A DNA stretch of 64,000 bases, taken from IMG/VR virus record IMGVR_UViG_3300020203_000013, positions 38,269 to 102,268 of that record; one strand, given 5' to 3'. The stretch's first letter is position 1. Each line of letters starts with the position of its first letter. The stretch is from a virus. Below, in pieces: positions 33,520 through 64,000 of this stretch. The notes below the pieces were generated by a model. The model was not told the DNA's origin and searched no databases. It saw only the letters and a program-made list of their open reading frames with translations. Position numbers and translations under genes: made by a program.

Positions 33520-33602
33520 TGTAAATATATCTAAAGTATTATTTAAAAACAGCCGATACTATAAACTTGAGATTAACTTTTTATCAACTTTTTATTGAGA
33601 TT

Positions 33603-35186: not shown

Positions 35187-36744
35187 AAAGAAGCTAAAGT
35201 TTGATCTTCCAGAAAGTGCTGAAGATTTAACTCTCAAGATCCTAGACAACTATCCTAGGGAGAGGGATTCTGCCTCTCTAAAGAAAGTTCTAGGGGTAGG
35301 TCAGATTAAATATGCTGATCTAGTAGGGGGTCAAAAAGTAACTGCTGCGGTCGTAAACACAAAACCCTATACTTTACTTTTTGGGAAAGAGTTTATTGAA
35401 GAGAACTTAGAGGATATGGATGATTTAGTTTATCTTCTAAGTCATGAGTTAACCCACTTAGTTCTAGACCACTTTGCTGATGATATTCTAAAAGAATTTA
35501 AAGATAGAAAATTAGGACAACCTGCTATGCATATCATAGTAGATTGTCAGGTAAATGCTACTGTATATAACTCTTTAAAGGAAGAGAAGTACCTTAAGTT
35601 TATTAAAGACTACTACTATAAAGATATTGTTCCATATTGTTTTTTTAGACCTGATGGTGATCCTAAGTACGTATCTGAGGGTATAAATGAGGAGGCCAAG
35701 AAGAGACTAGGAAATACAGATGACCCTAGATCGAATATCAGTCACGAAGATTTAATATTAAAAGAGCTTGATCCTGAGTTGAGAAAAAGCTTTACTGATG
35801 CTCACGCAAAGCTATACTCTGAAGGTGGAATTTCCAATAAAGAGTTAATAGATGTGTTGATGCCTTGGTTTGAGCAAGAACAACAAAAGCAGGATGCCTT
35901 TCAAGAGATACTAGAAAAGTTGCTTGGTAATCACAGTGATCTAGGTAAAGGTAAGAGTTGTGGATCTCCTGGTCTGTCCGATTTAACTGAGACTGTGGCC
36001 AACAACTACCTTAACAGGGATAAAAAAGAAGAGGCGGGGAATGGGGAGGAAGGCGGAGGAAGCTCTGAAAAAGACGGGGGACGTAAAGCTGGAGAGGGGG
36101 GCCCAAAGAGGGACCAGATGGTTGAGATTGTTATTGAGTCTGCTGAACATGCTAGGCACGTCAGGAAGCAGATCAAGGACGTGAGAACCATTAGTCCTAG
36201 TGCCAGAATTTATAGAGCTATAGATCAGTATAGCCCTAAAACAGCTACTAGAAGCGTAGTGCCTAATTTTTATGATAGAAGGACTTCTGCAATCTATTCA
36301 ACTACAGGGGAAGTTCCCGTCTTTCATAAAATAACAAACTTAGGATCTAAAGTTCTAGTCCCTTGTTATTTGGACGTTTCTGGGTCTCAGGGTCATGTTA
36401 TCCCACACACTATACCCGTGGTAAGTAAGCTAAAAAAATTGATAGGTAATGTGGTTTTCTGTTTTTCTACTTATGTTAGCGATACCAACATCAACGTACT
36501 TAAAACTGGTAGCTATGACACCAGTGGTGGAACTGACTTTAATCCAGTACTAGAGCATATACTTAAAAATAGGTATAAACAGGCCGTAATACTAACAGAT
36601 GGAGAAGCTTATGCCGACCCAAAACTGTTAGATCGGATTAAAAAAATGAGGGTTAAGATTACTGTAGGTTGGACTTGTAGTAAACCCTCTCTTTTTCCAC
36701 TATCTGAGATAGCTGAAAAAACATTCTTTGTATTTGATAACTAA
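35170..36744 (+). CDS. Metallopeptidase-VWA protein (DUF2201-like), MoxR partner
   Basis: LSHELTHL (HExxH), DCQVN, acidic/Gly linker, MIDAS LDVSGS, GGTDF, ILTDG. Confidence 0.8.
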   Translation: MPLQSKKKLKFDLPESAEDLTLKILDNYPRERDSASLKKVLGVGQIKYADLVGGQKVTAAVVNTKPYTLLFGKEFIEENLEDMDDLVYLLSHELTHLVLDHFADDILKEFKDRKLGQPAMHIIVDCQVNATVYNSLKEEKYLKFIKDYYYKDIVPYCFFRPDGDPKYVSEGINEEAKKRLGNTDDPRSNISHEDLILKELDPELRKSFTDAHAKLYSEGGISNKELIDVLMPWFEQEQQKQDAFQEILEKLLGNHSDLGKGKSCGSPGLSDLTETVANNYLNRDKKEEAGNGEEGGGSSEKDGGRKAGEGGPKRDQMVEIVIESAEHARHVRKQIKDVRTISPSARIYRAIDQYSPKTATRSVVPNFYDRRTSAIYSTTGEVPVFHKITNLGSKVLVPCYLDVSGSQGHVIPHTIPVVSKLKKLIGNVVFCFSTYVSDTNINVLKTGSYDTSGGTDFNPVLEHILKNRYKQAVILTDGEAYADPKLLDRIKKMRVKITVGWTCSKPSLFPLSEIAEKTFFVFDN

Positions 36745-38834: not shown

Positions 38835-39932
38835 TTAACTGTTGACTACTTCAAGTGCCGAATTTACAATGTACTTTAGCTGATTTTCATTTAAGTCTGG
38901 GAAACTTGGAAGATTAAAACCTAGTTTATAGATTTCTTCACAGTTAGTAAGGGGAACTGGTGTCTTTATATCAAACCCCTTCATGAGGTGGATTGGAGTA
39001 AACACTGACCTAGTATCTACATTCTTTTTTGACATCTCACTTTGAAACTTAGAGTAGTTAATAGTGTTTGGTAATTTAAATACAGGCATCCACTCAGAAC
39101 TGTCTATAGATGGCCATACGTTGGTGATAGGGGAACCTTCAAATCGTGTCCTATAGAATGATGCTAGGGCTTTCTTTTTATGGGTTATTCCGGCTAGCTC
39201 TTCTAACTGTGCAGTACCTATAGCGGCCTGAATGTTGGTCATCCTAAAGTTATGACCTGGACCATCGTGGATAAAACCACCAATATGAGATTGGCTCTTC
39301 AGAAGTCTAAGTTTTTTACTTAACTCCAGGTTATTAGTGCAAACACATCCACCCTCTCCTGTTGTAATATTTTTGTTAGCGAAGAAAGAAAAAGATGATG
39401 CTACTCCTAAACTGCCGACAGCTTTACCATCGGGCATAAAGCAGTTGAATGCCTCTGCACTATCCTCAATTAAGTGAATGGAATTTGAATTACAGAAGTC
39501 TATTAAGTAATTCATATCAGGTGCATCACTATAAAGTTCGGGCACCATAATAGCTTTAGTCTTTTTACTTAAGCATTGTTTTAGTTTATCTAAATCCATT
39601 TGAAAGTTATTATCAGAATCTACTAGCACCGCTGTGGAGCCAGATAGGTTGATAGAGCTTATAGTTGCTGCATAAGTTAAGCTGGGAGTAATTACCTCGT
39701 CACCGTAACCTATATTCAAGCCCCTGAGGATGAGTAATAAGGAAACTGATCCATTAAAGGTACTAAGAGTGTTACTAATTCCTAAAGCCTTAGATATGGA
39801 TTTTTCAAACTTGTCTATGTAATCTCCCCTAGAACTAATCCAATTAGAGTCTATACAATCCAGAACATACTTTCTTTGGTTCTTAGCTTTATGAGGTTCG
39901 TATACTGGTATTAAACTCTTTGGCTTATACAT
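38835..39932 (-). CDS. DegT/DnrJ/EryC1/StrS aminotransferase (perosamine synthase-like)
   Basis: NWISSRG, IEDSAEA, SFSFFANKNITTGEGG, NFRMTNIQAAIG, NLPSFP; start set at ATG 39932. Confidence 0.9.
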   Translation of the reverse strand: MYKPKSLIPVYEPHKAKNQRKYVLDCIDSNWISSRGDYIDKFEKSISKALGISNTLSTFNGSVSLLLILRGLNIGYGDEVITPSLTYAATISSINLSGSTAVLVDSDNNFQMDLDKLKQCLSKKTKAIMVPELYSDAPDMNYLIDFCNSNSIHLIEDSAEAFNCFMPDGKAVGSLGVASSFSFFANKNITTGEGGCVCTNNLELSKKLRLLKSQSHIGGFIHDGPGHNFRMTNIQAAIGTAQLEELAGITHKKKALASFYRTRFEGSPITNVWPSIDSSEWMPVFKLPNTINYSKFQSEMSKKNVDTRSVFTPIHLMKGFDIKTPVPLTNCEEIYKLGFNLPSFPDLNENQLKYIVNSALEVVNS

Positions 39933-40975
39933 TATAGGCTCTCCAAAAACTCTTTCCAATCCGACCGAACTTTATCCTTAGAGAACTCTTTCAAGACTAA
40001 CTCCCTGCCATTCTTGGATATATACTCAGCCAATTGCCTATTGTTTAACAGTTCTTTTAGAATTGAATTCAGTTCTCCTAGGTTATCTGAGAAAAATGCA
40101 TGTACCCCGTTTGTAATTAAGTCGGAAGGTTCGTAGGTTCCATCCCACTTACTGCCTCTCCAGTTGCCCAGATCTGGGCCCCAAGTAACTGTAGGTGTTC
40201 CTGTAAGCATGGCCTCTAGCATGTTATAAGTCAAGGATGCTGGTTTAGAGCCTAAGGCGAAGTATGCCTTAGCCTTCCTGTACGCCAGCCTCTGATCTTC
40301 CCAGGAAAGATGTCCTATGACCTCAGGATGCCCATCAGAGGTACCGCCATATGTCTTATGGGGAATGTCGGAAACTACCTGTAGATACTGAGGGGTATTA
40401 CTGATAAAGGATCGGCGGGCGAAAAAGTTATTAAAGGTTAACACGTAGTTATCTGTACCTTCCCAACCAAAGTAATCCTTTTCATTTACAAAGGGCCTGA
40501 TAACTCTAGTCATAGGTAAAGATCCTAGAATATTCTGCTCTTTAGGGGAACCTCTGACAACTTTAAGTCCTTGAGATATTAAAGGGGCCATAGCCACCTC
40601 TATCTCAGGCTGTTGTTGGGTATAAGTATGCCATATTACCGGCTTATGTTTAATTGCATCCCAGTTAGCTAATACCCCATAAGGCCAAGGACAACAGTGA
40701 CTTACTAGAACAATATCAAACTGATCTACTAGTTCTTTTGATACAATAGATGCCCCATGTATTTGCTTATTGGGACAGGACTTTCTAAATGAATCGATCC
40801 ACTCTTGATTGGCTGTCTTATTAATTGACTGTCTATATAATCCATCTGCTGGAATTGGATTTTGTGGGTCTAGGAAATGGCCAGTCGAAAACCAGTCATA
40901 TCCTAGCTCTGTAAAAAGAGTCATCAAGTCGAACTCCATAATTATGTGGTCGGAGCTAATGTGTAAAATCTTCAT
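39932..40975 (-). CDS. GT-B (GT4-like) glycosyltransferase
   Basis: NMLEAMLTGTPTV, ITNGVHAF, ISKNGRELVLKEFS. Confidence 0.8.
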   Translation of the reverse strand: MKILHISSDHIIMEFDLMTLFTELGYDWFSTGHFLDPQNPIPADGLYRQSINKTANQEWIDSFRKSCPNKQIHGASIVSKELVDQFDIVLVSHCCPWPYGVLANWDAIKHKPVIWHTYTQQQPEIEVAMAPLISQGLKVVRGSPKEQNILGSLPMTRVIRPFVNEKDYFGWEGTDNYVLTFNNFFARRSFISNTPQYLQVVSDIPHKTYGGTSDGHPEVIGHLSWEDQRLAYRKAKAYFALGSKPASLTYNMLEAMLTGTPTVTWGPDLGNWRGSKWDGTYEPSDLITNGVHAFFSDNLGELNSILKELLNNRQLAEYISKNGRELVLKEFSKDKVRSDWKEFLESL

Positions 40976-40981
40976 AGACCT

Positions 40982-41041
40982 ATTATACCTTATTAATTGA
41001 TAATTTCAAATGTAGACTTCTATCTAAATAGTTGATAAAAT
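40982..41041. promoter_or_regulatory. Back-to-back sigma70-type promoters
   Basis: Plus: TAGACT(41013)-17-TAAAAT(41036) with extended TG; minus: TTGAAA-16-TATAAT ending 6 nt before ATG 40975. Confidence 0.6.
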
Positions 41042-41051
41042 ACACTCATCT

Positions 41052-42035
41052 ATGAGAATAATTGCACATCGGGGGAACTTAACGGGGCCAAACCCAGAAA
41101 TGGAGAATAATCCTTCTTACTTACTAAAGGCTTTGGGTGAGGGATATGACGTAGAAGTTGATGTATGGAAGACTCCAGATGGTCTATTTCTAGGTCATGA
41201 TATTCCAGATTATAAAATAGAAAGATCTTTTCTTTGTAATAAACGAGTTTGGTCTCATGCTAAGACTATAGAAACCTTTTACTTTTTGTCTCAGTTTAAA
41301 GACATAAATACCTTTTATCAAACTGAAGAAGATGTGGTGTTAACTAGTAGAGGTTTTTTCTGGTCTCATTCTAAAAATAAAGTATTTAATGAAAAAACTA
41401 TCTGTACTGATTTAAATCCTAATCCTAGTCATCTAAGTGGTCGTATAGATATTTATGGATTTTGCACAGATTACTGTTTAGAGGCCAGTTCTTACTTACC
41501 TAAGGAAAACAAATCCTTTCCGTTCAAACTATTGATACTAGATATTGATGGGGTAATGACTGACGGTACTAAAACATATGGACTATTAGGGGAAGTTTTA
41601 TCTAAGAAGTATTGTGACTTAGACTTTACCGCAATAAAAAGATTTAAGTCTGCTGGAATTAAAGTATGTTTTTTATCAGGAGATACTACAGTCAATGAGG
41701 AGATGGCGGAGTCTAGGAAGATAGACTTTTTTCATGCGCGGGCAGATAATGGAAACATAGATAAATCCGATTTTGTAAATAAACTTACCAATCACTATGG
41801 AGTTCATAAATCAGAAATGGCTTATGTAGGGGATGACTATTACGATTTAAGTATAATAGAGTCTCTTAAATTTACTTACTGTCCTTCTACCGCAAATGGT
41901 TGCATTAAAGAAAGATGTTCTAGGGTTCTAGACTCTCCTGGTGGTCATGGAGTAGTTGCTGAGTTGTATGAAATCCTTAAGGATGGGTTAGATTATGCCT
42001 TTCCAATAGACTCAATAGAGGTAAACCCTAAGTGA
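41052..42035 (+). CDS. Fusion: GDPD-like phosphodiesterase domain plus KdsC-type HAD phosphatase
   Basis: IAHRGN..EN..DVEVDVW..LGHD; then LDIDGVMTDG, LSGD, YVGDDYYD, GGHGVVAE. Confidence 0.8.
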   Translation: MRIIAHRGNLTGPNPEMENNPSYLLKALGEGYDVEVDVWKTPDGLFLGHDIPDYKIERSFLCNKRVWSHAKTIETFYFLSQFKDINTFYQTEEDVVLTSRGFFWSHSKNKVFNEKTICTDLNPNPSHLSGRIDIYGFCTDYCLEASSYLPKENKSFPFKLLILDIDGVMTDGTKTYGLLGEVLSKKYCDLDFTAIKRFKSAGIKVCFLSGDTTVNEEMAESRKIDFFHARADNGNIDKSDFVNKLTNHYGVHKSEMAYVGDDYYDLSIIESLKFTYCPSTANGCIKERCSRVLDSPGGHGVVAELYEILKDGLDYAFPIDSIEVNPK

Positions 42036-42949
42036 TTAAAATAGATTTACATCTTATCGGTAACTCAATAGTTGACCAAGTATTTGAAATTAAAAAATCT
42101 AAGTCAGATAGTAAAGGCTTCCTTCCAGGAAGTTCCAACAGTTATTCATCTAGCAGAGTGTGTTTTGGGGGTTTAGGAAATTTACTTTCAGTATTTAAGA
42201 AGTCAAAACTAAACTTTCATGTATCTACTCATATAGGTAAAGACCAGAATGGTCAGAAGCTTAAGGACTATTTCTTAAAGAATAAAATAAATTTTAGCCC
42301 TTACGGTATAAAAGAAACTAGCTCTGCGTTACTCCTATCAGAAACTCTTGAAAACAACATTAAAGAGAAGACTAGTTTTGTAAGGTGGGGAGATGTTTCT
42401 GATTTGAAGAATTTTAAACCAGTAAAAGCGAGATGGGCTCATATTTCCTACCTAGATGTTGTACATAACTTAGACTTATCAGAATTAAGAAAACAATACG
42501 ATTACATGTCCGCTGATTTGTGCCTTAATGACCCAAAAAAGTCTGTAATAAATAAAGTTTTAAAAAGTCTTAAGTATTTAGATTTTCTTTTTATCTCTAC
42601 CAATGAGGCTTACACTTATACTAACTTAGTAACCAGGGAGAGTGGGGTTCTTTATATAGGAGATTTTTTAACTAAGCTTCTTAGAGATAAAAAGTCAGAT
42701 ACTAAAGTAATACTACATTCCCCTTACTTCTGTTCTGTATGCGAAAGGAGTGAAGAGCCTGTACATATAAGCTACCCTAATGCTAGAGGAAACGTATCTG
42801 TTGTGGGGGCGGGAGATAAGTTCTGTGCTAACTTCATCTCTTTTCTACTATATAATTGTAAGGAAATTACAAAACGAAATATACTTCTAGCTTGTGAGCG
42901 GTCTCATAAAAAAACTAAAAGTAGTTTAGAAACTTATGAAGAAATATAA
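42032..42949 (+). CDS. PfkB-family carbohydrate kinase
   Basis: GGLGN, IGKDQNG, STNEA, VVGAGDKF. Confidence 0.8.
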   Translation: MIKIDLHLIGNSIVDQVFEIKKSKSDSKGFLPGSSNSYSSSRVCFGGLGNLLSVFKKSKLNFHVSTHIGKDQNGQKLKDYFLKNKINFSPYGIKETSSALLLSETLENNIKEKTSFVRWGDVSDLKNFKPVKARWAHISYLDVVHNLDLSELRKQYDYMSADLCLNDPKKSVINKVLKSLKYLDFLFISTNEAYTYTNLVTRESGVLYIGDFLTKLLRDKKSDTKVILHSPYFCSVCERSEEPVHISYPNARGNVSVVGAGDKFCANFISFLLYNCKEITKRNILLACERSHKKTKSSLETYEEI

Positions 42950-44093
42950 CTTATTGGTGCCTTTGGCTGGGAAGGGGCAAAGAATGGTGGATGGGGGTTA
43001 CTCCTTTCCAAAGCCAATGATTATGGCTGGGGATCGGCATATTCTAGATTACGGTTTAGACTCTATTGATTACTCTGAGTGTAATTTAATATTCGTAGTC
43101 AGGAGAGATCATATCTGTAATTTTGCAATAGATAAGTTCCTAGAGAAGTATGGATCAGATATTAAAATTATTGTTGCAGAAGAAGACACTAAAGGATCAG
43201 TCTCTACTTGCCTCCTAGCTAAAGACGAAATCAATAGTGATATACCTCTTATTATATTCTGCCCTGACATATATTTTGAGGATAAGTTTAAGCCTACGGA
43301 CGATTCCTTTAAACACGAAGGACTTATATTAACCTTTAAAGCTAACTCTGCTAACTATAGTTACGTCTGTGAAGACCAAGACGGCTTTGTAGAGCGTACC
43401 GCAGAGAAACTTGTTATCAGCGATAATGCCTCTGTTGGAGTCTATTGCTTTAAATCTGGTAAGAGTTTTGTAAACTTAGCAGAGCTTGCAACCACCAATG
43501 ACCTTAAAACTAAAAATGAGTTTTATATCTGCCCGCTTTATAATTTGCTAATTGCCGGTGGGGGTAAAGTTAAATCCCAACAAGTACGAGTCATGTACGT
43601 TATGGGAACTCCCGATGAAATGAGTTTCTTTAAGGAAGTTATATATCCTTACTTTTTAAAAAGAAAGATTATCTTATGTGCAGACCATTCTGGTTTCGAA
43701 ACTAAAGAAAGAATTAAAGATTACTTGATAGAGTTGGAGTACGATTTTCTTGATTGTGGCACTTACTCTAAATCCGATTGTGATTACAGCGACTACATTG
43801 ATCAAGCAGTAGAGTCCAAGAGGTTTTTTCCAGGAGCTTTAATTATTGGGTGTTGTAGATCGGCTCAGGGTATTAACATGTGCGCCAATAAACATTCTGG
43901 TATTAGATCTGCTATGATCTCTACAGCCGAGGCTGCATCTTTAGCTATAAGACATAACGCAGCTAACTTCTTTGCAATTCCAGTAGGTATAGATGCTGTA
44001 GAACTAGAGTCTATGATTGATACCCTCCTCTCTGAGAAGTTTGAAGGCGGAAGATTTCAAAATAGATTGCAAAAACTTAAACGAATACTTTAA
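42936..44093 (+). CDS. Fusion: sugar nucleotidyltransferase-like domain plus RpiB-type sugar-phosphate isomerase
   Basis: LAGKGQRM..PKPMI, AEK, EFYICPLYN, MGTP; then ADHSGFETK, DY, ANKHSGIRSA, HNAAN, FEGGR. Confidence 0.85.
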   Translation: MKKYNLLVPLAGKGQRMVDGGYSFPKPMIMAGDRHILDYGLDSIDYSECNLIFVVRRDHICNFAIDKFLEKYGSDIKIIVAEEDTKGSVSTCLLAKDEINSDIPLIIFCPDIYFEDKFKPTDDSFKHEGLILTFKANSANYSYVCEDQDGFVERTAEKLVISDNASVGVYCFKSGKSFVNLAELATTNDLKTKNEFYICPLYNLLIAGGGKVKSQQVRVMYVMGTPDEMSFFKEVIYPYFLKRKIILCADHSGFETKERIKDYLIELEYDFLDCGTYSKSDCDYSDYIDQAVESKRFFPGALIIGCCRSAQGINMCANKHSGIRSAMISTAEAASLAIRHNAANFFAIPVGIDAVELESMIDTLLSEKFEGGRFQNRLQKLKRIL

Positions 44094-44413
44094 TGAAAGT
44101 CTCTAAATTATCTGATTTCAGTAATGGGTGGTTTATAGGGGACTTTGAACCTACCTTACTTAAGACAAGTCAATTTGAAGTTGCTCATCATAAATACATT
44201 AAGGGGTATAAGGGTATACCACATACTCACAAGGTTTCTACTGAATATAACTATGTAATTAGTGGAAAACTTATTGCTTCAGGTGAAGAGGTTAATTCAG
44301 GGGAGATATTTACTTACTTTCCTAATGAAGTCTCTGATGTAACATTCTTAGAAGACACTGACCTCATAATAATAAAGTCCCCTTCAATACCTAATGATAA
44401 GTTTAACTGCTAA
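44093..44413 (+). CDS. Cupin-fold protein
   Basis: GWFIGDFEP, HTHK..TE.N.VISG. Confidence 0.75.
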   Translation: MKVSKLSDFSNGWFIGDFEPTLLKTSQFEVAHHKYIKGYKGIPHTHKVSTEYNYVISGKLIASGEEVNSGEIFTYFPNEVSDVTFLEDTDLIIIKSPSIPNDKFNC

Positions 44414-45425
44414 GGACTAGTTTCCATTGTTGTAGTTTATCTTCTTTTGAAAATAATTTAATAGCTAATTTTCTAGCTTCTACAGATATACTCTTTGCTA
44501 GCTTTTCATTCGAGACGAGTTCTTTAGCTATATCTACCAGTTCCCCTGAATTATCAGAATAGAATCCATTTATACCGTTTTCTATTACATCTGGTAAGGT
44601 GTAAGTTCCTCCGTAGTGGGGATGTTTAGATCCTCCCAAATTTGGGCCAAAGTTGATTGTAGGCATTCCAGTCATTAAAGCCTCCATTAAATTGTAAGTA
44701 TACCAAGAAGGTTTAGTACCTAAAGAGAAGTAAGCTCTGTGAGACTTATACATCTCTTTTTGTGTGGTCCAGTCTACGGGTGGGGATGAGTATGAAACTT
44801 GATTATTATATCCAACTAGTTTAAATGGAAAATCTTTTATAATACTGGAGTAAACCTCATAATTATCATAGACTCTAATTCCAACCTCATCTACATGAGA
44901 TAATCTAGTCCTGAAGTCATTTTGAAAAGTTAAGACGGCTAACTCATTTCCTGCCCAGCCTTTATAGGTATCTTTATCTACGTAGTGGGATATTACATAA
45001 TCGGATTTGGTAGAAAAAGATAAATTATTTTCCCAATCAAACATTCTAACTAGGATTAAGCCCTCTAACTGACAAGATCTTAGTAAGTTTTCAGTCTTAT
45101 GGGTAGGATTATCGTGAGACCTATAAATTACTTTTTTATTTTTCAGGATTGGCCAAAATTGTTCTAAATAGGCCGGTGAATTACTTATAAATATTATATC
45201 AAAATTATTTAAGGTATTTATAAGGGGGTCAAAGTCACTTCTAAGTATTTCACTGTATAGACTAGGTTCTATTATTTTATCTATAGGAGGTCTCATCGTT
45301 GATGTAGGAATTTGAGGATTAAAGTAATGACTCATCGATAGCCAATCGTAACCTAGTTCTGTAAACAAAGTTAAATCATCGAATTCCAAGACTGGATGTC
45401 CTGATCCTATATATAATATTTTCAT
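44403..45425 (-). CDS. GT-B (GT4-like) glycosyltransferase, paralog of 39932-40975
   Basis: Shared EFDxxTLFTELGYDW, AYFxLGxKP, TYNxxEAxxTGxPT. Confidence 0.8.
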   Translation of the reverse strand: MKILYIGSGHPVLEFDDLTLFTELGYDWLSMSHYFNPQIPTSTMRPPIDKIIEPSLYSEILRSDFDPLINTLNNFDIIFISNSPAYLEQFWPILKNKKVIYRSHDNPTHKTENLLRSCQLEGLILVRMFDWENNLSFSTKSDYVISHYVDKDTYKGWAGNELAVLTFQNDFRTRLSHVDEVGIRVYDNYEVYSSIIKDFPFKLVGYNNQVSYSSPPVDWTTQKEMYKSHRAYFSLGTKPSWYTYNLMEALMTGMPTINFGPNLGGSKHPHYGGTYTLPDVIENGINGFYSDNSGELVDIAKELVSNEKLAKSISVEARKLAIKLFSKEDKLQQWKLVLSS

Positions 45426-46373
45426 TTATTTAACTCTTCCAATTAGATTTTCAAATTTCAAAAAGAATTCCGACTCTTTCCACTTTAACAGATATGGCTC
45501 CAACACGCTAGGGCCTCGATCTATTATGTCTTGTATTTTATTACTATCTAGGCAGATTAAGTGCTTTACATCTAAGAGATGATCAAACATGGGAGATGAA
45601 CTAATTCCTATAGGTCTTCTTGCTGATAAGGCAAAGTCCACTGAGCTAGATATTCCTATTTTATTCTTCTCTTGGTATAGGAAAAGATTAACAGTGTTCT
45701 GACCTAACCATTCAACTACCTGACTTGTACTTAAAAAATCATGAGTTATTTTTAAAGTTATTCCTGGCTTGAGGGTTTTTTCATTACAGAGTTTTTCAGT
45801 ATTCAATGCATGAGTTTTACCGTCCAGGTCTACGACTGAGTTAAAAGGCATATGAAAACATATATCAGCTGTATCAAATTCATCTTGAACTCTATCTATA
45901 GTTTGTAACCAGCCTCTACTTAAAAATCCAAAGCCAAATGCTCCAATTTTAGGGACATCTTTATTAACATACTCTACTGCGTTCAAAGGTGGTATTAATC
46001 TAGGTAATGGAAAAAAACCAGGCTCTTCTTTTAATGTCGTATTAGCGTAGAAACCGTGAGAAAAGTAATAAGGATTACAGGAGGACTTTAAGTGTTGAAA
46101 TTGTCCTGGTTCATGTATTATATTGATATAGATTTTTGCAGGGCATGGAACGTGGTTATGAACATAAGACATTAGTCCTGGGACATAGTTAATTACAACT
46201 ATGTCTGCTTTAGTCCTGTTTAAGGCTAGTTGAAAGTCTTCTAAGTTTCCTGGTTCTTCATAGAAGTACTCATTAGTGTTGCTGGTAAAGTTAGTTAAGA
46301 CCTTTCCAATATTATATCCAAATTGGTATATTCCACATTGCTTACTATTAGTATTGACAAGTAAAACTCTCAT
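45426..46373 (-). CDS. Glycosyltransferase (GT-B-like)
   Basis: CGIYQFG, IGAFGF, GISSSVDFALSARRPI; start set at ATG 46373. Confidence 0.65.
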   Translation of the reverse strand: MRVLLVNTNSKQCGIYQFGYNIGKVLTNFTSNTNEYFYEEPGNLEDFQLALNRTKADIVVINYVPGLMSYVHNHVPCPAKIYINIIHEPGQFQHLKSSCNPYYFSHGFYANTTLKEEPGFFPLPRLIPPLNAVEYVNKDVPKIGAFGFGFLSRGWLQTIDRVQDEFDTADICFHMPFNSVVDLDGKTHALNTEKLCNEKTLKPGITLKITHDFLSTSQVVEWLGQNTVNLFLYQEKNKIGISSSVDFALSARRPIGISSSPMFDHLLDVKHLICLDSNKIQDIIDRGPSVLEPYLLKWKESEFFLKFENLIGRVK

Positions 46374-46377
46374 ATGT

Positions 46378-47178
46378 TTACCAAGACTCCTCATACCAGT
46401 ACTCACTTAGGACTTCTCCCACATGAAAATGATAATTTTTTAAGTTGTGTTTTGGCCAGGAGAAGTCAATTCTAGGAAAAACCTTGAATACTTTGTCCCT
46501 AAGGTTGTTATATATATTAAGTGCCTCTTCTTTTTTAGGACTGACATCTGTTAAATACTCTGCATAGTTCTCCATCATTATAGATACTCTAGAGTCAAAT
46601 AGAGAGTAGTAATGACCTCCTATATAACTTTCAGGTCTGACAACATGGTTCCAATAAGACTCTGATCCTATAGGTTTTCCGACAACTTCCTTAGGTTGCA
46701 TAAGAAAGGGAATATCAAATAGTTTTTTAAGGTCTTTAGTGCTTCCCCAAAATATATGATCTCTTGGGTGAAACGGAAAGTCTTTATACATTCCTAAAAC
46801 AAAGATAGGGGAAGATGGGCCAGAAATACCTTGATAGTGTATTTCGTTTTTAGAAAACTTTCGATAAAAACTGTCCATAGTGTCCAAAGCGGAGTGGGAA
46901 AATACCTGGTCTGTTCTCATCTTAGCACAGTAGTCGAGGCTTACATGCTTTAGTCCTTCCCTTGATGAGTGAATCTGTCTGTTTATATTTCCAACGCCTG
47001 GATACTCTACATCTTCATTCTTAACTAGTATAACTCTATTAGATTCTAGAACTGGAATGTTGCAGGATTTCCAACAGGATATTATGACATTATTTACTAG
47101 AGGATGAAGTAGATATTTAGAAACTATATCTTGAGTATAACTATAGAGAGGTCCTTGTAACACGAGATCAATTTTCAT
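46378..47178 (-). CDS. wavE: WavE-family polysaccharide synthesis protein
   Basis: DLVLQGP, IISCW, NINRQIHSS..GL, KMRTD, HPRDHIFWG, PESY. Confidence 0.75.
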   Translation of the reverse strand: MKIDLVLQGPLYSYTQDIVSKYLLHPLVNNVIISCWKSCNIPVLESNRVILVKNEDVEYPGVGNINRQIHSSREGLKHVSLDYCAKMRTDQVFSHSALDTMDSFYRKFSKNEIHYQGISGPSSPIFVLGMYKDFPFHPRDHIFWGSTKDLKKLFDIPFLMQPKEVVGKPIGSESYWNHVVRPESYIGGHYYSLFDSRVSIMMENYAEYLTDVSPKKEEALNIYNNLRDKVFKVFPRIDFSWPKHNLKNYHFHVGEVLSEYWYEESW

Positions 47179-47191
47179 GTATCGTAAAACC

Positions 47192-47905
47192 TTATCTCTT
47201 TATTAAAGTCTTAGCTGGAGAACCTACTACTGTTATATTTTCTGGAACATCTTTAGTTACTACCGCGCCCGCGCCTACTACCGCGCCCGCGCCTATGTTC
47301 TTCTTTTCTAGAATGGTACTTCCAGTTCCCAGGTAAGAACCTTCCCCTACGTGACAGTTACCTGATAGCTTTACTCCTGGACTGATCACGACATAATCAT
47401 CAATAACACAGTCGTGACCTATAGTAGAGTTCCAATTAATCATCACATGGTTTCCAATAGTAATATTGCATGTCAAAATGTTACCTGCTGTAATTAGATT
47501 ACCTACACCAATCTTATTAAAATTACGTATGCTATGGTAACGATTCTGAGGATGATCTTCTATTCCTATTACGGAGGGGTGAATTAGGTTAGGGAACGTA
47601 CAGTAATCTTTAATTTCGTTAACTATAGACTTCTTTACACTTGGAGAGCCAATTCCGATAGCTACGGATAGGGTAATCCAGTAGGGTGACCTATCTCCCT
47701 TGGTTTCATGGTAGTCCTTTATCCAAGACTCGTTCCCTAAGACTTTAATTCCATTAACTTCAGTTCCCCACTTACTTGAGTCTTTATCTATAAATCCTAA
47801 CAAGTTAAAACACGCGCCAGGATTAGATCTATTAATATCTTCTATTAATCCTACCACTTCCCTAGCAAAGCCACCCGCCCCTACAATTACTATGTCTCTA
47901 GGCAT
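47192..47905 (-). CDS. NeuD/PglD-family sugar acetyltransferase
   Basis: GAGGFAREV, AIGIG, LIHP, IGHDC, hexapeptide repeats, VVGSPAK. Confidence 0.88.
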   Translation of the reverse strand: MPRDIVIVGAGGFAREVVGLIEDINRSNPGACFNLLGFIDKDSSKWGTEVNGIKVLGNESWIKDYHETKGDRSPYWITLSVAIGIGSPSVKKSIVNEIKDYCTFPNLIHPSVIGIEDHPQNRYHSIRNFNKIGVGNLITAGNILTCNITIGNHVMINWNSTIGHDCVIDDYVVISPGVKLSGNCHVGEGSYLGTGSTILEKKNIGAGAVVGAGAVVTKDVPENITVVGSPAKTLIKR

Positions 47906-49188
47906 TACTTCTTTACCTTTGGTTCTTCCTTAGAAATCACTTCTAACTTAGGTAACGGGAATACTACTCTACCGCCTTGTTCTATAAACTTTTTAACTTT
48001 AGGGTTGTTTAATATATTAGTGCGAAAGTGGTAAGGCCCAATAATTAAAACATCACTATTTTTTCTATCTAGTATCTTATCTTGTTTTACAATAGGTATA
48101 TTAGTTCCTGGAGTTACTTTACCAAACTTAGTTGGATTTACTTCTCCAATCTCTTTCATTAAATTAGAGTCTACATTACAGTATTGAAGTAGTACGTTTA
48201 ACTTAGTGCTTGCGCCAAATCCATTTACCTTAAGTCCTTGAACCTTACAAGTATTTAACAATGCAACAAAATCTGCCTTAAAATTAGAACATTTATAAGC
48301 AAACTTATCGTATGTTTTGCTATCGTTAATCCACCTACCTTCTTTGAAGAACTCTTTCCCTACTTTAATACGTTGTCTAACTGTTGGTCTTCTTTTAGAA
48401 AGCACTACTCTAAAGCTTCCTCCATTACAATCGTTATAAGTTACGTCTAGTATATTTAGCTTACACTTCTTAGCTATATTATGAATATCCCTTAGGGAGT
48501 AGTAACTTAAGTGCTCATGCACGAAACCATCGACACATATTTTATCCAGTATCGCGCCTAGATATGCGGCCTCCATTACCCAGACCCCATCTTTAGTTAA
48601 CACCTTAGTAACATCCTTGGCAAACTTAATAGGGTCATCTAGATCGTAAAAACAGGCTATACTCGTCACTAAATGAACAGAGTTCATATATTTTTGCAGT
48701 GCTGGTGTTCTTGTTAGGTCGAAAAAATCGGGGAAAGTTTCTATATTTTCCTCGTGATTTTCATAAGCTTTCTCAAAGTTAATTATAGAAGGATCAACTG
48801 CTATTAGTTTCTTCCCTTCTCTACCAAAGAATGATAGAAAGGTTCCATCATTTGCACCAATGTCTAGAACCTTGTCTTGCCCTTTTGCAGGAAATTTAGC
48901 AAACTTTCGAGAGTAATTTGATAACTCTTCAAGGTGAGATACCATCTGAGAGTTTAAAGCTGAAGAGTACCCATAACTCTGCCCAAACATTTGATTAGCG
49001 TCCGTGGTTTCTTTGAGTTGAACCAGACCACAAGACTTACATTTAATAACGGTTACTGGAACCTTTTCAACGTATTCCCCTTTCTTTGGGAAATTACCTG
49101 TTAGACTCTGTACACCTAAGTCCAATAAGACCCTTGAATCTTTTATCGACTTGTTACAAATCCTACAACTAGTTCTAATAGTATACAT
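47905..49188 (-). CDS. NDP-hexose C-methyltransferase (class I SAM, Zn-binding N-terminus)
   Basis: CRIC..LDLG, CKSCGLVQL, LDIGANDGT, HEHLSYY, GFGASTK, GKVTPGTNIPI, FPLP. Confidence 0.88.
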   Translation of the reverse strand: MYTIRTSCRICNKSIKDSRVLLDLGVQSLTGNFPKKGEYVEKVPVTVIKCKSCGLVQLKETTDANQMFGQSYGYSSALNSQMVSHLEELSNYSRKFAKFPAKGQDKVLDIGANDGTFLSFFGREGKKLIAVDPSIINFEKAYENHEENIETFPDFFDLTRTPALQKYMNSVHLVTSIACFYDLDDPIKFAKDVTKVLTKDGVWVMEAAYLGAILDKICVDGFVHEHLSYYSLRDIHNIAKKCKLNILDVTYNDCNGGSFRVVLSKRRPTVRQRIKVGKEFFKEGRWINDSKTYDKFAYKCSNFKADFVALLNTCKVQGLKVNGFGASTKLNVLLQYCNVDSNLMKEIGEVNPTKFGKVTPGTNIPIVKQDKILDRKNSDVLIIGPYHFRTNILNNPKVKKFIEQGGRVVFPLPKLEVISKEEPKVKK

Positions 49189-51511: not shown

Positions 51512-52243
51512 TTAAATTTGTTTAACTAAATCCCCAAACAAATCCGGCGCATCTTCTAAGTTTGTATCTAAAGAAGCACAAGTTAAGAGGGTATTAGAGA
51601 CTAAAATGGTATTAGAACTGAATGAGCCACCAGAAGTTCCTCTCTCAGCCAAATCCCCGCTAGGTATTTTTATTGTCTGACTACCCCAAGAGTTCGTCTG
51701 AGTGGCAGTCCCGATTTTAGGCCCAAAAGGATTAGTTGGGTAAGAAGGTCCAGGGTATGTACCAGGGCCTATAACGCCAGGGTATATGTTAGGTATTCCA
51801 GGGCCTATAACACCAGGGTGTACACCGCCAGGGTATATGTTAGGTATTCCAGGACCAAAAGGACCCTTACTGATCTTTTTTATAATGTCTTGCATCTCTT
51901 CGTCGGTTAACCCAACGATAGCTTTATGTACTTTGGTTATGTTTTCACTAGTCCTGGTAACTGAGATATTGGCTTCGCATATAACCCAGCTAACTTTATA
52001 CTCCAAAGAACTTAAAGATTCTACGTTCTTTCCATCATGAATTTTAATAACCTTTCTAACTGGATTAAGTTCTTCTACTATAGACCGAACCTTAATATCT
52101 ACAATTTGGACATTTTTTTTATCGTCCTGTAAGGCCAAAAGATAGAACCTATTAACTGAGATGTCGTCAAAAGGAATAGCCTTGCTCTTTAAGAACCCCC
52201 AATGGATAGATTTTAACATGCCAGGAACGTCAGGAATTTTCAT
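51512..52243 (-). CDS. Array-family domain plus Gly/Pro repeat tail
   Basis: MLKSIHW..LEYKVSWVI, then GPGIPNIYPG repeats. Confidence 0.6.
   Translation of the reverse strand: MKIPDVPGMLKSIHWGFLKSKAIPFDDISVNRFYLLALQDDKKNVQIVDIKVRSIVEELNPVRKVIKIHDGKNVESLSSLEYKVSWVICEANISVTRTSENITKVHKAIVGLTDEEMQDIIKKISKGPFGPGIPNIYPGGVHPGVIGPGIPNIYPGVIGPGTYPGPSYPTNPFGPKIGTATQTNSWGSQTIKIPSGDLAERGTSGGSFSSNTILVSNTLLTCASLDTNLEDAPDLFGDLVKQI
51762..51853. repeat. Coding repeats (GPGIPNIYPG / PGVIGPG)
   Basis: CGCCAGGGTATATGTTAGGTATTCCAGG at 51775 and 51826; CCAGGGCCTATAAC at 51762 and 51798. Confidence 0.8.
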
Positions 52244-57568: not shown

Positions 57569-57938
57569 ATTCCAAGCCCTTTAAGTAAGTATGGTCTATG
57601 CCGTGTAAGTAAGTTTCCTGCGTTAAATATAATCCGAAGTTATCCTTAAAATTAAGGGTCGGATGAATACAAATACTTATATAAAAGACCGTCTCCGGTC
57701 CCGATCTGTTAAAGTATCTAAAAAATCCAATTATATCTTCTCCACTAAAGTTAATAGTAACTTGGATTTTTTCTAAGTGCTGTCCAAGGTTAGGCATACT
57801 CTTACTATCCGTAAAATCTACTAAATCGTTTAAGGCTTTTTGATAGTCGTAAGAAAGCTCTAGGTTTATAAGTTCAACCTTATTAATAATCATCCTACGC
57901 AAATTATCGTTATATATCTTACTTAATAAATTCTTCAT
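57558..57938 (-). CDS. Array-family small protein
   Basis: N-term NLLSKIYND. Confidence 0.6.
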   Translation of the reverse strand: MKNLLSKIYNDNLRRMIINKVELINLELSYDYQKALNDLVDFTDSKSMPNLGQHLEKIQVTINFSGEDIIGFFRYFNRSGPETVFYISICIHPTLNFKDNFGLYLTQETYLHGIDHTYLKGLEYVD

Positions 57939-57958
57939 ACAATAAGTCTGTCGGCATA

Positions 57959-58318
57959 TTAGGGTAAATTCTTTAGTAAATTTTCATCGTACTTGAGAAT
58001 GCTCCATTGGTCCCCGTAAGTACTTATGCGGGCCCTATACCTCCTAGGCCGTACCTTTCCTGGCCGTACCTCCTTAGGATGAAAATTTAAATATGCAGCA
58101 CCTACCGATTCATCACTTACCGACGATAGCTCTCCTTCAAGAAAGTGGCACCTACAGGGCTCGGTTCTCCAGGGTACACGTTTAATCTTTAGTAGGACAT
58201 TTATTCTAGCAGAAGGAACAGATTTTAAGTAGCTTATTATACCCTCAAGCCCTTCAACAGGTAAAGGTTTAAAGGCACCATCCATCATCTTTTCAAGCAG
58301 TCTAGCTGATATTGACAC
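57959..58318 (-). CDS. Array-family small protein
   Basis: Start reassigned to GTG 58318 (GGAGG 6 nt upstream) giving MSISARLLEKM; C-term ISTYGDQWSIL. Confidence 0.6.
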   Translation of the reverse strand: MSISARLLEKMMDGAFKPLPVEGLEGIISYLKSVPSARINVLLKIKRVPWRTEPCRCHFLEGELSSVSDESVGAAYLNFHPKEVRPGKVRPRRYRARISTYGDQWSILKYDENLLKNLP

Positions 58319-58400
58319 TAGTAACCTCCAGAACTTCCCAACTTTTACCATACCCTTCAAGCAAGACTATATCTGATAGTTTTTTCAATAGGTAACTCAT
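58302..58400 (-). CDS. 32-aa mini-member of array family (internal deletion product)
   Basis: Hand-translated MSYLLKKLSDIVLLEGYGKSWEVLEVTSVNIS*; ATGA overlap with upstream gene. Confidence 0.5.
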   Translation of the reverse strand: MSYLLKKLSDIVLLEGYGKSWEVLEVTSVNIS

Positions 58401-58717
58401 TTTAGCGCCGCCCAAACTTTACCATAATCTTTAGTATTAAAAACAAAAGTACTTATATGTACTCCTTTCTCATTAATATACTTCTCTACTGGGACTGCAT
58501 AAATACTGGTCCCGTCCGTTAAGAAGATAGATATGTTAGATAGAAATATCCTAGACTCTTCAAGGTTAACCATTTTAAGTTGAGGGCTTACATCGCTAGT
58601 ACTGGCGTTAAGCCATATATCTACTACCCTACAAAATGAGTAGACATCATGAGCTTTCTCGGTGTTTACCAGATGGAGGAGGCTTTTCCTATAGAATTTG
58701 TTTAATAGATAATTCAT
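58397..58717 (-). CDS. Array-family small protein (recent duplicate, copy A)
   Basis: MNYLLNKFY...KDYGKVWAALK. Confidence 0.7.
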   Translation of the reverse strand: MNYLLNKFYRKSLLHLVNTEKAHDVYSFCRVVDIWLNASTSDVSPQLKMVNLEESRIFLSNISIFLTDGTSIYAVPVEKYINEKGVHISTFVFNTKDYGKVWAALK

Positions 58718-59067
58718 TTTTTAAGTACCCACCATGACGTTGTGTACGAAGACTCTTCAAAAAAAAGAGGCTGGCCTTCCTCGTAGTAAAGCACGTGAAA
58801 CCTAAAGTAGACACGATCTCTGTACAACCTGTTGGCAGTACATTGGCTAATAAGGGTACCAGTCGTTTTTACCAAAATCCCATCTTCCATTCTTTGTATT
58901 ATAGTTACATTCCGTAAATAGCCATAATCATTAAACGAACTATAATAAAATGCTTTTTTTACTCTATGTAAATCCTCTATCATTTTTCGGTCAGTGATCT
59001 CTCTTTCTAATCCTTTCTGATTTAAAGCAGTTAATCCTTTAGTTAATCCTTCAGTTATGTAACTCAT
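58714..59067 (-). CDS. Array-family small protein
   Basis: Start ATG 59067 (ATGA overlap); C-term ESSYTTSWWVL. Confidence 0.6.
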   Translation of the reverse strand: MSYITEGLTKGLTALNQKGLEREITDRKMIEDLHRVKKAFYYSSFNDYGYLRNVTIIQRMEDGILVKTTGTLISQCTANRLYRDRVYFRFHVLYYEEGQPLFFEESSYTTSWWVLKK

Positions 59068-59393
59068 TTTAGCGCCGCCCAAACTTTACCATAATCTTTA
59101 GTATTTAAAACAAAACAACTTATATGTACTCCTTGCGTATCAATATACTTCTCTACTGTGCCTGCATAAAAACGGGTCCCGTCCGTTAAATCAATAGATA
59201 TGTTAGATAGAAATACCCGACCCTCGGCAAGATGAACAATTTTAAGTTGGATATAGGTAAATTTGTAGTCCCCACCGTCACCTTTATACCATATATCTAC
59301 TACCCTACAAAATGAGTAGACATCATGAGCTTTCTCGGTGTTTACCAGATGGAGGAGGCTTTTCCTATAGAATTTGTTTAATAAATAATTCAT
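59064..59393 (-). CDS. Array-family small protein (recent duplicate, copy B)
   Basis: MNYLLNKFY...KDYGKVWAALK. Confidence 0.7.
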   Translation of the reverse strand: MNYLLNKFYRKSLLHLVNTEKAHDVYSFCRVVDIWYKGDGGDYKFTYIQLKIVHLAEGRVFLSNISIDLTDGTRFYAGTVEKYIDTQGVHISCFVLNTKDYGKVWAALK

Positions 59394-59394
59394 T

Positions 59395-59787
59395 TTAGTG
59401 TATTTTTATAATATCCCATCCTATTCCTAGATCAGATATTCTTAATTTAACTCTATGTAAGTTAGGACTAGTTGGGCAGTATACGTCTGTTATCCATAAA
59501 TGGTCCCCAAACACTGCCACGTCCCCAAAAAACTCATCCGTGTTACGAGAATGCAAGGTAAAATCCCTATATACGTAAAATAAATTACTATTACTACTAT
59601 CTCTATACTCTACTATGCTCATTTTAATCAGTCTGTCAGTTAAAAATCTTCTGTAAAGTCCATACGGCATAATAGCCTTATCCTTAGACCTAAGACCTAT
59701 TAGATTTTTTATTTCGCTTGAAGTATACCCTTTAAATAGATCAACCAGTCTCCAGGTAAATACTTTCTCTAGTAGTCTATTCTTCAT
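59395..59787 (-). CDS. Array-family small protein
   Basis: RLLEKVF; ISDLGIGWDII. Confidence 0.6.
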   Translation of the reverse strand: MKNRLLEKVFTWRLVDLFKGYTSSEIKNLIGLRSKDKAIMPYGLYRRFLTDRLIKMSIVEYRDSSNSNLFYVYRDFTLHSRNTDEFFGDVAVFGDHLWITDVYCPTSPNLHRVKLRISDLGIGWDIIKIH

Positions 59788-60148
59788 CTTCTAAAATTAC
59801 CCACCACTGCTCTTTATAAGTTCTTTCGGAATACTCTTTACTCTCTTGCTTTCCCCCACCAGATTCCTTGCCTACAAAAGAGTAATACCTGTACGTAAAT
59901 CCTATTAATAAGTCTTCATAGTTATCTTTTAAAGACCCCTTTAATATTCTATACGGCCTCTCTTTACTTCTAGTTTTATTGACTAAAGTAACTTTAATTG
60001 GCAACTTACTTTCTAATCTTCTATCAATATCATTTAAACTAGCTACTCTAGACCTCTCCCCTGATATTAAATCCAGAATAGACTCCTGATAGGAATCCTG
60101 CACCCTCTTTAAGTGATTAGTATATAGCCGGTTCAGTAATAAGTTCAT
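59777..60148 (-). CDS. Array-family small protein
   Basis: LLLNRLY; RTYKEQWWVI. Confidence 0.6.
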   Translation of the reverse strand: MNLLLNRLYTNHLKRVQDSYQESILDLISGERSRVASLNDIDRRLESKLPIKVTLVNKTRSKERPYRILKGSLKDNYEDLLIGFTYRYYSFVGKESGGGKQESKEYSERTYKEQWWVILEDEE

Positions 60149-63136: not shown

Positions 63137-63514
63137 TCACCAGTGCTTAGAAAAGTTTAATATCCAATAAGTCTTGTTAACATCTTCAATTAGAAATTGT
63201 GTCGCGATCCCCTTATTATGTTCGAAGCGGGAGATCACTGTAAAACTACCCTTCTCAAAACTGTTATTGCCATACAAGTGTGCAAAACCATAACCTAGTT
63301 TATAACACACTATTCCCTCTAAAGAGGTAGATATTGCTGCATAGGTAACAACTTGATAAGAATCAAAACGTAATTCAGTCTTGAATATACTAAATAATTG
63401 CTCAGAGTCTAAGGGTTTACTAGAATTCTTACAAAGACTTTTAATACCATCGGAGTCTAGTCCATGTAAAAACTTCCAATAAAGCCTCTTTAATAGTTCT
63501 TTATTCATGGACAT
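63137..63514 (-). CDS. Array-family small protein
   Basis: MSMNKELLKRLY; EDVNKTYWIL. Confidence 0.6.
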   Translation of the reverse strand: MSMNKELLKRLYWKFLHGLDSDGIKSLCKNSSKPLDSEQLFSIFKTELRFDSYQVVTYAAISTSLEGIVCYKLGYGFAHLYGNNSFEKGSFTVISRFEHNKGIATQFLIEDVNKTYWILNFSKHW

Positions 63515-63920
63515 TTAGTATCCACCAGTGAATGTTCAAATCACCAACTAGCAGTTCGTTCATTTGAACGTGAGGTATGTAGTCCTTCTCCCAATAACGA
63601 AGTTGTTGCGCCTTCTTCCCCCAATAACGAAGTTGTTGCCCCTTACCCGTGATGTGTATCTCTTGGTCTAGATAAAGATGGTAGTTAAGGTCATCCCAGT
63701 TCCAACATACAAATGTAGCCTTGAAAGACGTGAAGTGCGGGTTATGTATTGCTTTTTTTCGTACTGTCTCTAAAAATGCCTTCATTTTCTCAGGCCTTGA
63801 AGACTTCTTATAGCAATCAATATGATTCTCCAACTTTAGATATATGCTATCTCCCTTTTTATAAAGATCCGTCAGCGTTCTAAAGTATATTTTATCTAAT
63901 AGTTCTTTATTCATGGACAT
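63501..63920 (-). CDS. Array-family small protein
   Basis: MSMNKELLDKIY; GDLNIHWWIL; internal QQLRYW duplication. Confidence 0.6.
   Translation of the reverse strand: MSMNKELLDKIYFRTLTDLYKKGDSIYLKLENHIDCYKKSSRPEKMKAFLETVRKKAIHNPHFTSFKATFVCWNWDDLNYHLYLDQEIHITGKGQQLRYWGKKAQQLRYWEKDYIPHVQMNELLVGDLNIHWWILNVHE
63590..63639. repeat. 30-nt-period tandem duplication (QQLRYW x2)
   Basis: CCCAATAACGAAGTTGTTGC at 63590 and 63620. Confidence 0.85.
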
Positions 63921-64000
63921 TTAGTATCCACCAGTCAATGTTCAAACCAGAAACTGACAGGTCGTTCATTGGAGCGTGAGGCATGTCCTTATCCCAATAA
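63907..64000 (-). CDS. 3' end of another array-family gene (close paralog of 63501-63920)
   Basis: Hand-translated ...YWDKDMPHAPMNDLSVSGLNIDWWILNVHE*. Confidence 0.7.
   Translation of the reverse strand, partial: YWDKDMPHAPMNDLSVSGLNIDWWILNVHE

Follow-up and report, generated by a model that had tools for sequence, protein, structure and literature searches.

Two small neighboring genes in a phage genome are nearly identical at both ends and clearly different in the middle. How did such a pair come about? The initial annotation regarded it as a recent duplicate pair that diverged almost only by amino-acid-changing substitutions. It proposed either strong diversifying selection or gene conversion that homogenized the ends while the core was swapped. 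We analyzed the pair (copies A and B) within a window that covers the final 64 kb of a linear IMG/VR virus record of 102,268 bp. The completeness of the record is 36% (CheckV), which implies a phage genome of roughly 280 kb. The genes of the window include a large terminase, a capsid protein, an SSB gene and other phage genes, and the terminase is ~27% identical to the terminases of the Bacillus phage Stills/Slash group. The DNA was found in microbial-mat metagenomes (2018) and in part in freshwater metagenomes (2017). Searches of the GenBank phages by blastn gave no match. A search for related loci and scans for exact DNA patterns among viral and metagenome contigs were also empty, and near-identical records may lie outside this set.

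Some other parts of the window were characterized by domain matches. On the plus strand (33567-36744), an AAA_5 (MoxR/dynein-like) ATPase precedes a protein that weakly matches the VWA-like DUF2201; this pairing is common in cellular MoxR-VWA systems. Positions 38835-49188 hold a sugar-modification gene cluster with a DegT/DnrJ aminotransferase (E = 9e-81) and a C-methyltransferase with a zinc-binding N-domain (E = 1e-32). This cluster may serve glycan or DNA-sugar modification. From ~51 kb to the contig end, nearly all genes are small, closely packed and on the minus strand. A 51-nt tandem repeat (82% identity) was observed at 51761-51862, within a 243-aa ORF (51512-52243), and is Pro/Gly-rich as read on the coding strand.

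Copies A and B belong to an array of at least 16 tandem, translationally coupled genes on the minus strand, which encode small proteins of about 105-145 aa. The 16 array genes can be aligned, and their products, copy A excepted, are 13-22% identical to copy B. They share an N-terminal helix (M..LL.K.Y...L), a central strand and a C-terminal motif (F....YG..W.ILK). Copies A and B are the youngest pair in the array. In an all-against-all BLASTP of the ORFs in the record, they were the sole pair of small array genes that BLAST recognized, with 82 of 109 residues identical (75%, E = 3e-59). When a profile of the family was searched against 1.84 billion representative proteins, it recovered 15 proteins. 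All of them were the array's own genes or near-identical variants, plus P0019, and the search found no relatives of the family outside the lineage of this roughly 280-kb phage. P0019 (124 aa) shares 64% identity with the product of 63504-63920, and its C-terminus closely resembles that of the truncated gene at 63907-64000. That gene, which lies on the minus strand and is truncated by the contig end, resembles the gene at 63501-63920 in its C-terminus; the MSMNKELL start that follows is also repeated. Gene 63501-63920 contains a 30-nt tandem repeat (63585-63644, 93% identity) encoding QQLRYWGKKAQQLRYWEKD, and P0019 lacks one of the units.

The two minus-strand ORFs of the pair were present as initially annotated (Table 1). 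Their first 35 residues are identical, and the only difference in codons 1-35 is a synonymous one at codon 4 (CTA/TTA). The two copies also share codons 97-109 and the next 11 nt, which include the ATGA overlap and ATGAGTTAC of the following gene. Between these ends, the loop (codons 36-48) was indeed wholly replaced: 21 of 30 aligned nucleotides differ, and a 9-nt indel leaves 10 codons in copy A and 13 in copy B. The rest of the core (codons 49-96) can be aligned and has 24 nucleotide differences across 17 codons. Thus, 1 of 144 nucleotides differs in the ends vs. 24 of 144 in the alignable core (Fisher's test, P = 6e-7), and the contrast is stronger when the loop is added to the core (P = 4e-12). 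The core differences comprise six transitions and 18 transversions (kappa about 0.7), so they have no transition bias. Sharply bounded micro-patches on a near-identical background were also considered as a description of the core. This candidate was weakened, because the clustering within the core was mild (permutation tests, P = 0.02-0.035, uncorrected).

Table 1. Features of the A/B pair and its surroundings (positions in the window), and proteins of the A/B type
Feature	Position	Strand	Description
Mini-gene after copy A	58302-58400	-	32 aa; start (21/25 nt) and end (14/16 nt) match those of copy A, P about 0.01 each
Copy A	58397-58717	-	106 aa, intact ORF; stop overlaps the mini-gene start (ATGA)
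Identical 3' tract, copy A	58389-58438	-	equals 59056-59105 of copy B
Alignable diverged core, copy A	58439-58582	-	codon alignment
Replaced segment, copy A	58583-58612	-	codons 36-45, LNASTSDVSP
Near-identical 5' tract, copy A	58613-58720	-	one synonymous difference from copy B (59289-59396)
Gene X	58714-59067	-	117 aa from ATG 59067 (MSY...); diverged family member between A and B; P0007
Copy B	59064-59393	-	109 aa, intact ORF; stop overlaps the following gene's start (ATGA)
Identical 3' tract, copy B	59056-59105	-	last 13 codons, stop and first 9 nt of the next gene (ATGAGTTAC); repeat D1
Alignable diverged core, copy B	59106-59249	-	alignment codons 49-96
Replaced segment, copy B	59250-59288	-	codons 36-48, YKGDGGDYKFTYI
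Near-identical 5' tract, copy B	59289-59396	-	codons 1-35 and 3 nt upstream; repeat D2, 97%
Polymorphic block at the 5'-tract edge, copy B	59292-59300	-	codons 32-34; GTAGATATA in the window (VDI, as copy A), ATGAGCCTA in other samples (MSL)
Second young duplication, gene junction	63491-63580	-	90 nt, 89% identical to 63897-63986; repeat D3
P0004			identical to copy B of the window
P0001			copy B with VDI -> MSL at residues 32-34; 97% variant
P0003			sequence of P0001 called from the MSL methionine
P0002			identical to copy A of the window; on 4 contigs
P0005			copy A with R30K and A104V

A further small ORF adjoins the pair. The start of this mini-gene sits in the ATGA overlap with the stop of copy A. 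As judged from the similarity of both its ends to those of copy A, it is probably a third copy that lost its core. The gene that follows it probably starts at GTG 58318, behind GGAGG.

If selection for amino acid changes shaped the core, dN/dS should reveal it. By the Nei-Gojobori method (NG86), dN/dS was 0.885 over the whole gene and 0.94 once the loop was left out, and the core alone gave 1.28 (one-sided Fisher's test, P = 0.34). Pairwise maximum likelihood estimates of omega (GY94) were 0.87, 0.79 and 1.08, respectively, and these fits differed from omega = 1 by a 2dlnL of at most 0.19 in each case. With a neutral age shared by the ends and the core, the omega of the core was 1.89 (P = 0.24 against 1). 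With separate ages, the core was four times older than the ends (t = 0.52 vs. 0.13) and its omega was 1.1. The separate-age model was preferred weakly. The loop codons align doubtfully; a likelihood ratio test gave P = 0.012 with them and P = 0.175 for the secure core alone. Synonymous differences amounted to 1 in 28 sites of the ends vs. 4.5 in 32 sites of the core, and with so few sites the test of age is underpowered. The strong diversifying selection proposed for this pair was thus not supported, as dN/dS was ~1 by both NG86 and maximum likelihood, reached 1.9 at most and was never significantly above 1. The omega of the core was significantly higher than 0.2 (P = 0.002) and 0.3 (P = 0.02). 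Therefore, the constraint on the core is weak or mixed, and a core omega of ~1 is no proof of positive selection.

The pair looks nonsynonymous-only by eye because ~78% of the sites are nonsynonymous and because 2.5 synonymous steps hide in multi-hit codons. Pure synonymous differences are visible in only two core codons, R59 (AGG/CGG) and I67 (ATC/ATT). The synonymous share of the core differences equals the chance expectation, given that 22% of the sites are synonymous. All the residue changes listed in the initial annotation were present in codons 49-96, but the claim that the copies differ almost only by amino-acid-changing substitutions failed, as 4.5 of the 24 core differences are synonymous by Nei-Gojobori counting. 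This case is a caution: the residue changes, read by eye, resembled strong positive selection, while the computed dN/dS was ~1.

We also surveyed the variation of the pair across samples. Among 5.8 billion protein clusters (about 15 billion proteins), sequences of the A/B type were found in two clusters, one B-type and one A-type, with five distinct sequences in all (Table 1). The MSL variant of copy B was carried by contigs of 11.3 kb and 53.8 kb. Contigs from four other runs (X4, X6, X7 and X9) were compared with the window over 57900-59900. The A core had no differences in X6 and X7, and the B core had none in X4, X6 and X7; each core recurred without change in contigs from other microbial-mat and freshwater samples. 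The only variants of the pair in these contigs were the MSL block in copy B (X4 and X7) and the A104V SNP in copy A (X9). Three single-base variants occurred over the compared stretch, A104V and two in the flanking genes, and all of them were transitions. As far as the contigs show, within-population hypervariability was not seen: there were five sequences, and the cores were invariant between samples.

The MSL block changes six of nine nucleotides, from GTAGATATA to ATGAGCCTA on the coding strand (59294-59300 of the plus strand), and was found in X4, X7, P0001 and P0003. It lies precisely on the boundary of the 5' tract of identity, and the VDI allele equals the sister copy A. Every copy A carries GTAGATATA, the same as copy B of the window. 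Such a block polymorphism is a classical footprint of interlocus gene conversion. In one contig of X7, the B core and the MSL block were connected to gene X and the CTA codon, which form the upstream context at the A locus. This contig could be a true recombinant or a path taken by the assembler, considering the 81-nt exact repeat and a depth of ~3, and we treat it as weak evidence. The last codons of the 5' tract form the 3' arm of a ~9-bp hairpin with codons 25-28 (59290-59325 and 58614-58650, both on the minus strand). The VDI block belongs to this arm, and the hairpin would be disrupted in the MSL allele. Another source of the block change could be template switching in this quasi-palindrome. 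Some contigs had holes upstream of copy B (59307-59775 in X7 and 59291-59668 in X6) or over the A core (X4). These may be strain differences in gene content or assembly breaks induced by repeats. As contigs can drop or collapse repeat-flanked variants, the holes were not counted as evidence.

Could the pair still stem from a recent duplication, after which positive diversifying selection acted on a binding surface? In that case, the ends and the core would have the same age, the ends would be held by purifying selection, and the variable codons would change because new specificities are favored. We consider this possible but doubtful. The core omega of 1.89 under a shared neutral age, the significant excess of omega over 0.3 (P = 0.02) and the excess of transversions in the core all speak for it. 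The distribution of the changes does so too: 6 of the 17 changed codons carry two or three differences, the number of changed codons is lower than expected by random placement (17 vs. 20.3; permutation test, P = 0.024), and residues 52, 54, 56, 58 and 60 are changed while 51, 53, 55, 57, 59 and 61 are conserved, as on one face of a beta-hairpin. However, omega was never significantly above 1 (P = 0.24 to 0.9), and the pure synonymous codons 59 and 67 lie inside or beside the changed patches. The loops are unrelated in sequence, with 21 of 30 nucleotides differing and a 9-nt indel, so they did not come from point mutation; nor is the MSL block, with 6 of 9 nucleotides changed, a product of point mutations. 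Moreover, both cores were identical in all other samples examined, and no ongoing diversification is visible. It is quite unlikely, in our opinion, that one redundant copy is instead drifting neutrally to loss under relaxed constraint, with nothing adaptive or recombinational except one indel event. An omega of ~1 is the neutral expectation, and the probable core-deleted relic of a further copy next to copy A suggests that copies decay in the array. But neutral drift would strike the ends too, yet they have 1 difference vs. 24 per 144 nt. Both ORFs are also intact and translationally coupled, and each core was unchanged across several samples.

Two further explanations concern the machinery behind the differences and the assembly itself. 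Targeted hypermutation by a diversity-generating retroelement (DGR) or a similar system produces variable regions such as that of Mtd in the Bordetella phage BPP-1, which is a DGR target. As in Mtd, the differences between A and B are confined to a bounded region within an otherwise identical phage coding sequence. An invariant 3' stretch that is locally GC-rich (TGGGCGGCGC) comes next and bears a superficial resemblance to a homing signal. The pair differs from Mtd in having an indel and in lacking adenine specificity and a cloud of population variants: at 9 of the 24 core differences adenine is absent from both copies, 37 core adenines are invariant, only five distinct A/B-type sequences exist among about 15 billion proteins, and the cores do not vary between samples. 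In the 102,268 bp of the record (~36% of the genome), we found neither a reverse transcriptase domain (PF00078, E <= 1) nor a third, template-like copy (E <= 10). This explanation is largely refuted, and we hold it to be very improbable. An assembly artefact, in which two strain alleles of one gene were stitched into one contig, is scarcely credible at all. The shared ends of 50-105 nt do confuse short-k assemblers, and Logan contigs break or collapse there. However, a unique gene (gene X) lies between the copies, and both proteins are recorded on several contigs. Independent contigs of other runs link the copies to flanks like those of the window: X6 record 7 holds gene X together with the B core, and X7 record 10 holds the A core together with its downstream flank. 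This rules out a chimera between strains.

We therefore return to the second proposal of the initial annotation, recombination or gene conversion with a swapped middle. It fits better than selection, considering the mosaic of identical and divergent parts (P = 6e-7), the unrelated loop with its indel and the polymorphism of the edge block. In the reading that we favor, the pair is the youngest of a fast-turnover, lineage-restricted family and has become a mosaic through end recombination or gene conversion, block replacement and near-neutral or mixed divergence of the core. We put the chance that this full account is right at about even. A and B would have arisen within a family whose evolution proceeds through the birth and loss of genes. 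Recombination or gene conversion between the copies, whose identical ends are 667-676 nt apart, would have preserved or created the identity of the 5' 105 nt and the 3' 50 nt. The middle third would have had a separate history, in which the segment of codons 32/36-48 was replaced wholesale. In the remaining 48 codons (17% different), the rates of amino-acid-changing and silent differences are about equal (omega ~1). We infer that conversion, rather than recency plus selection, lies behind the identical ends.

Several observations bear on this mosaic account. The core differences have no transition bias, unlike the three isolated strain SNPs of the region, which counts for it. The identical ends encode the conserved N-terminal helix and the C-terminal YGxxW strand of the family. 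The RNA folds of the ends were not unusual (z from -0.5 to 1.2); therefore, structural constraint at the nucleotide level does not explain their identity. A donor for either core or for the MSL block was not found in the 102 kb, where a 12-mer search of the variable patches gave matches at chance level. The protein libraries searched held no orthologs beyond near-identical variants. The array is actively rearranging, as indicated by a second young duplicate whose repeat is centred on a gene junction (63491-63580 and 63897-63986) and by the core-deleted relic after copy A.

What these proteins do was approached through their folds. Pfam had no match at E <= 1 for A, B or the 16 family members, PHROG gave no significant profile match (best E = 0.013), and the PDB sequences had no match at E <= 10. 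AlphaFold2 models built with the family alignment had pLDDT values of 57.7 (B) and 47.2 (A), and the features common to both are limited to two N-terminal helices with beta strands after them. Fold searches from these low-confidence models retrieved generic small beta-barrels at best (Z <= 5.1), with nothing above background, and nothing in BFVD at E <= 0.001. The ESM Atlas provided no lead for copy B or P0006, and its models had pLDDT values of 0.41 and 0.38. The alternation of varied and conserved residues at 51-61 hints, at the level of sequence, at one exposed face of a hairpin. By analogy with tandem arrays of small early genes in other large phages, such as the PeSL-bounded ORFan blocks of T4-type phages (PMC2839356), the proteins are probably variable-surface binders aimed at host components, for take-over or counter-defence. 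Reading the A/B core as an arms-race binding surface, as the initial annotation did, is a guess.

Multigene families and "gene accordions" are known in large DNA viruses, for example the amplification of poxvirus K3L and the ASFV families MGF360/505. The array resembles them in the tandem expansion of a lineage-specific family of small proteins, in its very fast divergence and in a presumed anti-host role, although it has no sequence or fold relation to K3L or MGF360/505. The internal-protein (IP) locus of T-even phages encodes unrelated proteins with a common conserved N-terminal peptide for capsid targeting. It is likewise a cluster of small variable proteins with a short conserved N-terminal motif, but the C-terminus is also conserved in the array family, which points to a shared fold rather than a leader peptide. 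Population-genetic models of interlocus gene conversion between young paralogs that stay diverged in part of the gene were reportedly developed by Innan and Teshima for cellular genomes. The pair has the features of such paralogs: the copies are close and in tandem, their identity tracts are bounded by divergent sequence, and a polymorphism of copy B has an allele equal to copy A. The setting differs, as those models concern cellular genomes and the synonymous-distance test is underpowered here (P = 0.175). A and B are an ordinary pair of young paralogs whose history is mosaic.

The hyperplastic regions of T4-type phages diversify by modular shuffling mediated by PeSLs (Arbiol et al. 2010, PMC2839356; PMC4122927), which are intergenic cassettes of an early promoter and a stem-loop terminator (PMC2839356; PMC4122927). 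In both systems, a large phage of the virulent type carries small, non-essential ORFan genes in blocks. Short conserved sequences at gene boundaries, the recombination points for gene-sized gain, loss and replacement in T4-type phages, would act likewise in the array. In contrast to the PeSL system, the genes of the pair overlap (ATGA) with no intergenic space, and the shared sequences are the coding 5' and 3' ends of the genes. We did not find PeSL-type cassettes in the array: promoter- or terminator-like sites were not in excess, and the junction folds had z values of -0.5 to 1.2. It is conceivable, though we think it unlikely, that the conserved coding ends serve as recombination handles and that the array is a cassette-exchange library of binding proteins, with variable cores exchanged one gene at a time between copies and between co-infecting strains. 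Under this cassette-exchange reading, the A/B pair, the VDI/MSL edge and the joining contig of X7 would be a snapshot of one exchange. If true, it would be a counterpart, in coding sequence, of PeSL shuffling. Provided that exchange does occur at the ends, the array would offer a natural system in which binding modules are shuffled.

Tandem arrays of hyper-divergent small genes are frequent in large phages, and how they diversify is poorly documented. The A/B pair represents a rare young stage of this process. In this pair, early divergence took place in the middle of the gene, partly by block replacement, while the ends stayed identical.
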